Position numbers and translations under genes: made by a program. Under the pieces are notes generated by a model. That model ran no database searches and was not told the origin of the DNA. It was given only the letters and a program-made list of their open reading frames with translations. This document shows, piece after piece, positions 26,384 to 56,695 of a stretch of 64,000 nt of DNA (the stretch's first letter is position 1; every line of letters begins with the position of its first letter). The stretch lies in NCBI RefSeq assembly GCF_022846255.1, contig NZ_AP025682.1. One strand, 5' to 3'. Origin of the DNA: Escherichia coli. Lineage in GTDB: Bacteria > Pseudomonadota > Gammaproteobacteria > Enterobacterales > Enterobacteriaceae.

Positions 26384-26476
26384 GGTGAGGTGGCCGAGAG
26401 GCTGAAGGCGCTCCCCTGCTAAGGGAGTATGCGGTCAAAAGCTGCATCCGGGGTTCGAATCCCCGCCTCACCGCCA
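26384..26476 (+). tRNA. serV: tRNA-Ser (anticodon GCU), long variable arm
   Basis: 93 nt cloverleaf ggtgaggtggccgagag...ccgcctcaccgcca with anticodon loop cugCUAag and encoded CCA. Confidence 0.93.
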
Positions 26477-26479
26477 TTT

Positions 26480-26556
26480 GCATCCGTAGCTCAGCTGGAT
26501 AGAGTACTCGGCTACGAACCGAGCGGTCGGAGGTTCGAATCCTCCCGGATGCACCA
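26480..26556 (+). tRNA. argV: tRNA-Arg (anticodon ACG), copy 1
   Basis: 77 nt gcatccgtagctcagctggatagagtactcggctACGaaccgag...ggatgcacca; 3 nt after serV. Gene names for the four copies assigned by order only. Confidence 0.9.
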
Positions 26557-26620
26557 TCTCTTACTTGATACGACTTTAGTGGCGGTATCAAAAAATCTGC
26601 AGTAAAGTAAGTTTCCCGAT

Positions 26621-26697
26621 GCATCCGTAGCTCAGCTGGATAGAGTACTCGGCTACGAACCGAGCGGTCGGAGGTTCGAATCCTCCCGGATGCACCA
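26621..26697 (+). tRNA. argY: tRNA-Arg (anticodon ACG), copy 2
   Basis: Identical 77-nt sequence to copy 1. Confidence 0.9.
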
Positions 26698-26759
26698 TCT
26701 CTTACTTGATATGGCTTTAGTAGCGATATCAATATCAGCAGTAAAATAAATTTCCCGAT

Positions 26760-26836
26760 GCATCCGTAGCTCAGCTGGATAGAGTACTCGGCTACGAACC
26801 GAGCGGTCGGAGGTTCGAATCCTCCCGGATGCACCA
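26760..26836 (+). tRNA. argZ: tRNA-Arg (anticodon ACG), copy 3
   Basis: Identical 77-nt sequence to copy 1. Confidence 0.9.
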
Positions 26837-26899
26837 TCTCTTACTTGATATGGCTTTAGTAGCGATATCAATATCAGCAGTAAAATAAATTTTTCCGAT

Positions 26900-26976
26900 G
26901 CATCCGTAGCTCAGCTGGATAGAGTACTCGGCTACGAACCGAGCGGTCGGAGGTTCGAATCCTCCCGGATGCACCA
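26900..26976 (+). tRNA. argQ: tRNA-Arg (anticodon ACG), copy 4
   Basis: Identical 77-nt sequence to copy 1. Confidence 0.9.
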
Positions 26977-28160: not shown

Positions 28161-29744
<1,584 letters not shown>

Positions 29745-29753
29745 CAGAAAAGA

Positions 29754-29825
29754 AAAAGGCCACTCGTGAGTGGCCAAAATTTCATCTCTGAATTCAGGGA
29801 TGATGATAACAAATGCGCGTCTTTC
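29754..29825 (-). ncRNA. micA: Hfq-dependent small RNA MicA (SraD)
   Basis: Reverse complement reads GAAAGACGCGCATTTGTTATCATCATCCCTGAATTCAGAGATGAAATTTTGGCCACTCACGAGTGGCCTTTTT with an intrinsic terminator; in the gshA-luxS gap. Confidence 0.9.
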
Positions 29826-29893
29826 ATATACTCAGACTCGCCTGGGAACAAAGAGTTCAGAAAATTTTTAAAAAAATTACCGGAGGTGGCTAA

Positions 29894-30409
29894 ATGCCGT
29901 TGTTAGATAGCTTCACAGTCGATCATACCCGGATGGAAGCGCCTGCAGTTCGGGTGGCAAAAACAATGAACACCCCGCATGGCGACGCAATCACCGTGTT
30001 CGATCTGCGCTTCTGCGTGCCGAACAAAGAAGTGATGCCAGAAAGAGGGATCCATACCCTGGAGCACCTGTTTGCTGGTTTTATGCGTAACCATCTTAAC
30101 GGTAATGGCGTAGAGATTATCGATATCTCGCCAATGGGCTGCCGCACCGGTTTTTATATGAGTCTGATTGGTACGCCAGATGAGCAGCGTGTCGCTGATG
30201 CCTGGAAAGCGGCAATGGAAGACGTGCTGAAAGTGCAGGATCAGAATCAGATTCCGGAACTGAACGTCTACCAGTGTGGCACTTACCAGATGCACTCGTT
30301 GCAGGAAGCGCAGGATATTGCGCGTAACATTCTGGAACGTGACGTGCGCATCAACAGCAACGAAGAACTGGCGCTGCCGAAAGAGAAGTTGCAGGAACTG
30401 CACATTTAG
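29894..30409 (+). CDS. luxS: S-ribosylhomocysteine lyase (autoinducer-2 synthase)
   Basis: 171 aa; conserved HTLEHL metal-binding motif. Confidence 0.96.
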
Positions 30410-30472: not shown

Positions 30473-32011
30473 TTAGTGCGCACCGCCTCCGCCGCCACCT
30501 GCGCCAAATGGCGGTTTAGCAAACCACACCAGCCCCAGCAAGACGAGGAATATCCCCGCCGACATCCAGAAGATCTCATTGGCAGAAATAATCAGCCCCT
30601 GATTGGTGATCTGCTGGGCAATCCAGCCAGAGGCCTGCTGTTGCGTCATCCCCAGTCCTTCCAGTTGACTGTACATCGCCTGGGCGTTCGGGTTATACGG
30701 GTTCACCGATTCGGTCAACTGTGCATGGTGCAGCGACTCGCGGTTGGTCCACATGGTCGTGGTTATCGACGTGCCGATAGACCCCGCCAGCGTTCGCGTA
30801 AAGTTGGAGAGGCTCGATGCCGCCGCCAGTCGTTCCGGTGGCAAACCGGACAGCGTAATGGTGGTCAGCGGCATAAAGAAGCAGGCCACCGCAAAACCCT
30901 GGATAAACTGTGGCCAGGCCGACGCGCCAAAATCCATACCCGGTTCAAAGGTATAGGCACGCCAGTAGAAGCAGACGGCATACATAATAAAGCTGAAGGT
31001 TACCAGTCGGCGCATATCCAGTTTATGCGCGAAGCGGCCGATAATCGGCGACAGGATCACCGGAATAATCCCTACCGGCGCAGAGGCCAGCCCTGCCCAC
31101 GTCGCCGTGTAACCGTAGACCTCCTGCAACAACTGCGGCAGCAGAACAATCGCGCCGAAGTAGAGCATATACGCGAGGCTGATACACAAGCAGCCGATGG
31201 TGAAGTTGCGCGACTTAAACAACGACAGATCGACTATCGGGTTATCGTCGGTCAGCTCCCAGACAATCAGGAAGCAGATAGCCACCACCGCCACCACGGT
31301 GAGGATGATAATTTCCTGTGATGAGAACCAGTCCAGCTCTTTACCGCGGTCGAGCATAATCTGCAGGCTGCCGATACCAATAACCAGCAGTGCCAGCCCC
31401 ACGGCATCAATCCGCCGCCGTTCGGTGCGGGTTTCACGTCCGCGCAGAGTTTGCAGTGTCATCAACACCACCGCCACGCCAATCGGCACGTTGATGAAGA
31501 ATATCCAGCCCCAGTGGTAATTATCACTGATATAACCGCCGAGGATCGGGCCGCAAATTGGCGCAACAATCACCGTCATCGACCACAACGCCAGCGCGAT
31601 CGAGCGTTTGGCTGGCGGGTAGTTATTCAGCAATAGACTTTGCGAAAGCGGGATCAGCGGCCCGGCGACAATCCCCTGAATCACGCGGAAGAAGATCAGC
31701 ATATTCAGGCTGCTGGAGACACCACACGCCCACGACGCAATAGCAAAGGCGATGGTTGACCAGAGGAACAATTTCACTTCCCCGATGCGCTTTGCCAGCC
31801 AGCCGGTAAGCGGGATCGAGATGGCATTCGCCACCCCGAAAGAAGTGATCACCCACGTTCCCTGGCTGAGCGATGAGCCCAGATTCCCGGCGATAGTGGG
31901 GATCGCCACGTTAGCAATGGTGGAGTCCAGCACCTGCATGAATGTCGCCAGTGACAGCGCAATCGTCATAATGACCAGTTGTGCGCCTTCCAGCGGTTTT
32001 TGCTGTTGCAT
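30473..32011 (-). CDS. emrB: Multidrug efflux MFS transporter, 14-TMS type
   Basis: Start at MQQQKPLEGAQL, 3 codons inside the longest ORF (30473..32020); glycine-rich C-terminus GAGGGGGGAH. Confidence 0.94.
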   Translation of the reverse strand: MQQQKPLEGAQLVIMTIALSLATFMQVLDSTIANVAIPTIAGNLGSSLSQGTWVITSFGVANAISIPLTGWLAKRIGEVKLFLWSTIAFAIASWACGVSSSLNMLIFFRVIQGIVAGPLIPLSQSLLLNNYPPAKRSIALALWSMTVIVAPICGPILGGYISDNYHWGWIFFINVPIGVAVVLMTLQTLRGRETRTERRRIDAVGLALLVIGIGSLQIMLDRGKELDWFSSQEIIILTVVAVVAICFLIVWELTDDNPIVDLSLFKSRNFTIGCLCISLAYMLYFGAIVLLPQLLQEVYGYTATWAGLASAPVGIIPVILSPIIGRFAHKLDMRRLVTFSFIMYAVCFYWRAYTFEPGMDFGASAWPQFIQGFAVACFFMPLTTITLSGLPPERLAAASSLSNFTRTLAGSIGTSITTTMWTNRESLHHAQLTESVNPYNPNAQAMYSQLEGLGMTQQQASGWIAQQITNQGLIISANEIFWMSAGIFLVLLGLVWFAKPPFGAGGGGGGAH

Positions 32012-32027
32012 CACACGCACCTCTGGA

Positions 32028-36419: not shown

Positions 36420-36500
36420 GTAGGTATGATAAGACGCGCCAGCGTCGCATCAGGCATTGTGTACAGAGCGGCGGATGAGGCAAAAACGCCTTATCCGCCC
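36420..36500. repeat. REP/BIME palindromic units in the ygaY-proX gap
   Basis: gataagacgcgccagcgtcgcatcaggc and ggcggatgaggcaaaaacgccttatccgcc palindromes. Confidence 0.7.
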
Positions 36501-56332: not shown

Positions 56333-56695
56333 TGGTGGAGCTGGCGGGAGTTGAACCCGCGTCCGAAATTCCTACATCCTCGGTACTACATGCTTAGTCA
56401 GTCTTTACATTCGCTTGCCAGCTGCGGACGGACACGCCACTAACAAACTAGCCTGATTAAGTTTTAACGCTTCAACCCCAGGCAGGGCTTCCACGCGATC
56501 TCTTTTGGGTTTGACCTCTCTTGATCCCCGTCCTAAGAGCGGAGGCTAGGGAGAGAGGGCTCTAAGCAGGTTATTAAGCTGCTAAAGCGTAGTTTTCGTC
56601 GTTTGCGACTATTTTTTGCGGCTTTTTACGAGGCCAACCGCCCCTCGGCATGCACCTTGGGTTTCGCAAATCCCGTCGAATCCAGAATCAGCCCC
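56333..56695 (-). ncRNA. ssrA: tmRNA (transfer-messenger RNA, SsrA)
   Basis: Reverse complement begins GGGGCTGATTCTGGATTCGACGGGATTTGCGAAACCCAAGGTGCATGCCGAGGGGCGG and ends ...GGTTCAACTCCCGCCAGCTCCACCA; 363 nt; tag-coding region present. Confidence 0.97.

Follow-up and report, generated by a model that had tools for sequence, protein, structure and literature searches.

The minus strand of the 64,000-nt stretch of Escherichia coli DNA analysed here (NZ_AP025682.1; hereafter the window) almost certainly carries, between gshA and luxS, the micA gene in its canonical context, as judged from the match of its sequence to a known RNA family and to the K-12 gene. What the present analysis establishes are the identity and coordinates of the locus, the sequence features of its promoter and terminator, its potential for pairing, and its synteny and conservation. 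Nothing was found in the sequence that speaks against the assignment to MicA. Discovered in 2001, this small RNA has since then been the subject of detailed study; the gene described here is thus a thoroughly characterised and already known one, and no novelty attaches to it.

Identity and genomic position of micA

The whole window was searched against Rfam 15 with cmscan at gathering thresholds. RF00078 (MicA) matched 29754..29825 on the minus strand over model positions 1-75 of 75; the match scored 83.9 bits (E = 1.4e-11), the gathering score of the family being 41. An earlier reading of the same DNA, made from the letters and their open reading frames (the sequence-only reading), had placed the MicA sRNA on this strand at 29754-29825 and had tied its claim to a significant Rfam match over this interval; the family model returned the same coordinates and strand at a score above threshold. 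The coordinates of the gene, of its elements and of its neighbours are compiled in Table 1.

Table 1 Features of the micA locus in the window
Feature	Position	Strand	Basis
gshA (glutamate-cysteine ligase, TTG start)	28188..29744	+	ORF; RefSeq annotation of identical DNA
Long luxS 5' leader from P1	29562..29893	+	Coordinates transferred from K-12 experiments (PMC2956633)
Rho-independent terminator, hairpin 29775..29758 plus U-tail TTTTTCTTTT (29757..29748)	29748..29775	-	Terminator scan
micA (MicA/SraD sRNA, 72 nt)	29754..29825	-	RF00078 match and identity to K-12 micA b4442
Stem-loop 1 (CAUC-C-CUG / CAG-A-GAUG)	29783..29802	-	Rfam structure, MFE fold
Single-stranded 5' target-pairing region (MicA nt 8-24)	29802..29818	-	Unpaired in Rfam consensus; unpaired in the fold except for a discounted end helix
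micA -10 element TCTGA	29836..29832	-	Sequence; 16 nt past the -35 element, 6 nt ahead of +1
micA -35 element GAACTC	29858..29853	-	Sequence
A/T-rich tract AATTTTTTTAAAAATTTT	29861..29878	-	Sequence; upstream of the micA -35 element
luxS (S-ribosylhomocysteine lyase)	29894..30409	+	ORF; RefSeq annotation

Read out on the minus strand, micA is GAAAGACGCGCAUUUGUUAUCAUCAUCCCUGAAUUCAGAGAUGAAAUUUUGGCCACUCACGAGUGGCCUUUU, with a G at 29825 as +1. The equivalent in E. coli K-12 MG1655 (NC_000913) is the ncRNA micA (b4442, 2814802..2814874), which is flanked by luxS (b2687) and gshA (b2688), both encoded on the opposite strand. Over the approximately 180 nt compared, window and K-12 differ at 2 bases, one in the promoter spacer (29849) and one in a synonymous region at the 3' end of gshA, and the MicA RNA itself shows no differences. 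The K-12 gene is annotated with 73 nt, for which the equivalent end in the window would be 29753. The RNA, the flanking genes with their orientation, the promoter boxes and the terminator are all the same in the window and for MicA (SraD, psrA10; b4442) of K-12. No functional difference would be expected from the two base changes.

In the window, too, micA lies between gshA and luxS on the strand opposite to both. Only 9 nt separate the gshA stop codon from the 3' end of micA, the two genes being convergent, while the micA +1 and the A of the luxS ATG (29894) stand 69 nt apart on opposite strands in divergent orientation, close to the distance of about 70 bp that the sequence-only reading had estimated. 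Its description of gshA and luxS as convergent has to be corrected, since both genes lie on the plus strand in a co-directional (tandem) arrangement.

Promoter architecture

Upstream of 29825 on the minus strand, where the sequence-only reading had suggested looking for sigma-E -35 and -10 boxes, both elements were found. The order GAACTC, 16 nt, TCTGA, 6 nt and +1 G is of the sigma-E type, with a -35 element resembling GGAACTT and a -10 element of the TCTGA/TCTAA kind, spaced by about 16 nt and placed at the correct distance ahead of the +1. The pattern GAACT-N16-18-TCTRA occurs 2 times on both strands of the window (128 kb), compared to 0.32 matches expected. The other occurrence, at 28530..28555 (+), lies inside the gshA coding region and was taken as probably due to chance, because 5 of 100 shuffles yielded two or more matches.

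The A/T-rich tract that precedes the -35 element reaches to within 4 nt of the luxS Shine-Dalgarno sequence GGAGG (29882..29886, +), and an AT-rich element is mentioned in PMC1851643. For K-12, micA was described with a consensus sigma-E signature and a strictly rpoE-dependent transcription (PMC1851643).

Conservation within E. coli and across Enterobacterales

A 401-nt stretch around micA matched 5423 of 5426 complete E. coli genomes, many of them at 100% identity, and the locus in these genomes is always chromosomal and essentially single-copy. Such a distribution, with the gene single-copy and syntenic in nearly every genome, argues against the reading of the locus as a match arisen by chance or as a decayed copy without function, as do the E-value of 1.4e-11, a score of twice the gathering threshold and an RNA 100% identical to the functional K-12 gene. 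We consider that reading extremely improbable, and it is already excluded as far as sequence analysis allows.

For the comparison between species, one genome per species was used and loci were collected with an exact 22-nt word taken from the 5' region of MicA. This gave at least 120 loci from Enterobacteriaceae, Erwiniaceae, Yersiniaceae and Hafniaceae, plus Edwardsiella and others, a taxonomic range that represents a lower bound. Conservation of MicA nt 6-27 in this set is there by construction, because the set was chosen by the 22-nt word located in that region. Gene order was assessed by tblastn with the GshA and LuxS proteins of the window. Among the matches listed, with micA read forward, luxS lies upstream in divergent orientation and gshA follows downstream in convergent orientation in all 111 loci that offer room on both sides, and the remaining 9 loci are consistent on their single testable side. 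The distance from the MicA +1 to the luxS start codon ranges from 68 to 180 nt among the loci listed, with a median of 73 nt.

An alignment from -60 to +90 was built from 113 distinct Enterobacterales sequences among the matches listed, covering many genera. Invariant in these sequences are AAC in the -35 element, TCT.A in the -10 element and TG at -1/+1, and the upstream T-run is conserved to more than 90%. None of the promoter AAC, TCT.A, the +1 G or the T-run was constrained by the 22-nt search word. The promoter spacer and both hairpin loops vary freely among the same 113 sequences. At position -24 in the spacer (29849) the window has G and K-12 has C; since this column varies freely between species, the difference is probably neutral.

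Taken by themselves, the promoter features found here support micA as a gene predicted to belong to the sigma-E regulon, with RpoE dependence carried over from K-12. The sigma-E dependence ascribed to MicA by the sequence-only reading agrees with promoter architecture and conservation, the dependence proper being a result of the K-12 experiments (PMC1851643).

Predicted fold and terminator

The predicted fold of MicA has a free energy of -21.2 kcal/mol (z = -3.06 against dinucleotide shuffles) and contains two hairpins. An unpaired 5' region is followed by a stem-loop at nt 23/24-44, an A/U-rich linker and a GC-rich hairpin at nt 51-68. The minimum free energy (MFE) fold additionally joins the extreme 5' and 3' ends of the RNA; this helix was discounted, because it is absent from the Rfam consensus structure. 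The second of the two stem-loops is a Rho-independent terminator with U-tail, in which the stem GGCCACT/AGTGGCC at 29775..29758 encloses a 4-nt loop and is followed by TTTTTCTTTT. Detection of this hairpin and its tail on the minus strand bears out the intrinsic terminator that MicA had been assigned from sequence. A U-rich AAAUUUU precedes the terminator hairpin and would form, together with the hairpin and the U-tail, the usual Hfq-binding module.

The hairpin at 29758..29775 begins 14 nt past the gshA stop codon, and could therefore be viewed as merely the terminator of gshA, with no separate RNA gene at this place. We hold this to be hardly credible. The terminator scan called the hairpin in the minus orientation alone, and on the plus strand the stem is followed by AAAATTT without a T-run. 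On the minus strand, a full sigma-E-type promoter and 50 more conserved nucleotides lie upstream of it, and a minus-strand transcript of about 72 nt has already been published for K-12. Long luxS transcripts moreover read through the hairpin on the plus strand (PMC2956633). A bidirectional role, with the hairpin also terminating gshA, was sought in the same scan and no terminator was called on the plus strand.

In the alignment of 113 sequences among the matches listed, the Rfam base pairs, 14 in all, are standard pairs in 99.1% of cases, and shifting the partners by 1-3 columns lowers this share to 31-56%. The two helices of stem-loop 1 are paired to 99.6% and 97.3% across species, with a variable loop. 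The terminator stem is paired to 99.6%, and its top pair is swapped from A-U to U-A in 16 sequences. Compensatory changes were seen in 2 of the 14 pairs, most clearly in the swapped top pair of the terminator stem, and were absent from the other 12, of which 8 never vary. Covariation, sought in the 113 sequences as support for the fold independent of Rfam, is thus thin at only 2 compensatory pairs, because the stems hardly vary. Support for the fold comes from conservation and from the variability of the loops, not from covariation, so that the structure is consistent with the alignment without being independently proven by it.

Pairing with ompA and regulation of envelope proteins

The unpaired 24-nt 5' region of MicA was used to compute pairing with the K-12 ompA leader, ompA itself lying outside the window. 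MicA nt 8-24 pair with ompA -21..-6, the Shine-Dalgarno region, at -21.7 kcal/mol, an energy equalled by 3 of 1000 shuffles. In MicA of the window, the 5' region is thus conserved and unpaired, and its sequence is complementary to the translation initiation region of ompA. A calculation with RNAduplex, in which full-length MicA was set against the ompA leader, was rejected; the method ignores intramolecular structure and returned a meaningless 65-nt 'duplex'.

According to the proposed mechanism, envelope stress would activate sigma-E and thereby micA, and MicA together with the chaperone Hfq would act on mRNAs of envelope proteins. The unpaired 5' end of the RNA (approximately nt 8-24) would base-pair with the mRNAs of ompA and other envelope proteins over their ribosome-binding sites, and this pairing would block translation and speed mRNA decay, leading to a lower load of outer-membrane proteins during envelope stress. 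Published work describes that MicA with Hfq blocks ompA translation and promotes decay of the mRNA, with ompX, lamB, phoPQ and other envelope-related mRNAs as further targets (PMC4618604). Direct trans targets were validated by compensatory mutations (reviewed in PMC4618604), and in Salmonella MicA and RybB mediate the sigma-E-dependent decay of omp mRNAs (PMC1804206). As to Hfq binding, which the sequence-only reading had attributed to MicA, the hallmarks are present in the form of the U-rich stretch 5' of the terminator hairpin and the 3' U-tail; the Hfq dependence is a published one (PMC4618604). For the window, sigma-E dependence, Hfq dependence, target repression and luxS leader processing would follow by analogy from the experiments in K-12 and Salmonella, which were carried out on identical or near-identical sequence.

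The sigma-E-dependent, Hfq-binding sRNA RybB of enterobacteria belongs to the same regulon and resembles MicA in its sigma-E promoter, its seed at the 5' end and its repression of outer-membrane protein mRNAs (PMC1804206; PMC4618604). In contrast to MicA, it is described with an unrelated sequence, at another locus and without a cis-antisense partner, which sets the two apart. VrrA of Vibrio cholerae, with 140 nt, is not homologous to MicA and does not strictly require Hfq; it represents a functional analogue outside the family.

Antisense overlap with the luxS leader

In K-12, the sigma-S-dependent luxS promoter P1 was mapped by Udekwu (2010) to a G at -332 from the AUG, inside gshA (PMC2956633). 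The corresponding start in the window is G 29562, the 55-nt context of which is identical to K-12; it likewise sits inside gshA, 191 nt past the 3' end of micA. With a start at -332, the long luxS leader crosses all of micA in antisense, and MicA, being encoded inside this leader, can therefore form a perfect duplex with it. Such a duplex would be cut by RNase III. The sequence-only reading had described micA as antisense to both promoter and leader of luxS. The leader part of this statement holds (PMC2956633), whereas the mapped promoter lies 191 nt beyond the micA 3' end and is not overlapped.

MicA overexpression and RNase III were reported to turn long forms of the luxS mRNA into the shorter R3 form, the 5' end of which overlaps MicA by only 14-15 nt (~29811-29812 in the window), and the 70 bp adjoining luxS were found to be without promoter activity (PMC2956633). 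A scan for sigma-70 sites gave 1 site compared to 0.6 expected. This weak sigma-70-like site at 29803..29832 (+), ATGATA, 18 nt and TATACT, has 9 of 12 matches and overlaps the 5' end of micA. It was rejected as a luxS promoter, as it coincides with none of the published luxS 5' ends.

MicA shares with cis-encoded antisense RNAs processed by RNase III the perfect complementarity to an overlapping transcript, here the luxS leader, and appearance of the shorter luxS mRNA depends on MicA and RNase III (PMC2956633). Unlike these RNAs, it has its established output on trans-encoded targets. The complementarity nevertheless allows the reading that cis-antisense control of luxS, by RNase III cleavage of the MicA:leader duplex and/or by transcriptional interference, is the main job of MicA and that the trans targets are secondary. 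For such a role it can be stated that micA and its entire promoter lie within the luxS leader, with the A/T tract 4 nt from the luxS Shine-Dalgarno sequence, that the head-to-head layout is present in 116 of 116 testable loci among the matches listed, at a tight spacing (median 73 nt), and that steric interference was suggested as a possibility in PMC4618604. However, LuxS protein remained unchanged upon MicA overexpression (PMC2956633), the trans targets were validated with compensatory mutations (PMC4618604), and MicA is most conserved and accessible in the 5' region used for pairing with trans targets, a region whose conservation at nt 6-27 is in this set a matter of construction. We therefore regard cis control of luxS as an improbable main function. 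The cis role at luxS and the role on trans targets are not mutually exclusive.

Annotation of the locus

In the best 10 records for the 401-nt query, only gshA and luxS are listed and micA is missing. For a 135-nt query comprising promoter and gene (window 29748-29882), 12 records were drawn from across the ranking, and all 12 list no feature at the matched interval. Among the records inspected, micA is annotated only in the curated K-12 MG1655 record. The sequence-only reading had called micA easy to miss, and indeed all PGAP-annotated RefSeq E. coli records inspected leave the gap between gshA and luxS blank, so that tracks based on open reading frames miss a functional regulator.

Other features of the window

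A tRNA cluster at 26384-26976 (+), upstream of yqaB/yqaA/gshA, begins with one tRNA-Ser(GCT) gene, after which come four identical copies of tRNA-Arg(ACG). On the other side of micA, the gene after luxS is annotated as 'ATP-binding protein' in E. coli strain D8 (L001 2361-3401), whereas the window (30473-32020) and K-12 have emrB; the junction downstream of luxS therefore varies between strains.

The tmRNA gene ssrA was found at 56333-56695 (-) with 295.8 bits and the tag peptide ANDENYALAA. In the best-matching genome, glaH lies approximately 680 bp past the ssrA 3' end, and there is therefore no integrated island at this common integration site. An Rfam match to naRNA4 (CssrE, a nucleoid-associated ncRNA) at 36423-36500 (-) is barely above threshold, with 61.6 against a gathering score of 59.5; this family presumably derives from REP-type repeats. 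For window positions 40000-64000 (24 kb), no complete E. coli genome reached 99% identity. The best matches, at 98.9%, fall into 2 pieces spanning 25,869 bases, which means that those genomes carry about 1.9 kb absent from the window. The micA region, unlike this part, is 100% identical to many E. coli genomes.

Implications

The practical import of the finding lies in annotation, and as a discovery it carries little weight. Experimentally, the arrangement of the two genes has consequences, since deletions or insertions at the luxS 5' end can disturb micA, a confounding effect documented for luxS biofilm phenotypes in Salmonella (reviewed in PMC4618604).

Whether micA transcription affects luxS output in cis is a question already posed in the literature (PMC4618604). 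A tentative idea, which we think unlikely to be correct, is that sigma-E-driven firing of micA directly throttles read-through transcription of luxS or processing of its leader, in which case the strict head-to-head conservation would reflect more than shared ancestry. Raised in the literature but not demonstrated, such an effect would, if true, couple the output of AI-2 and of the activated methyl cycle to envelope stress.
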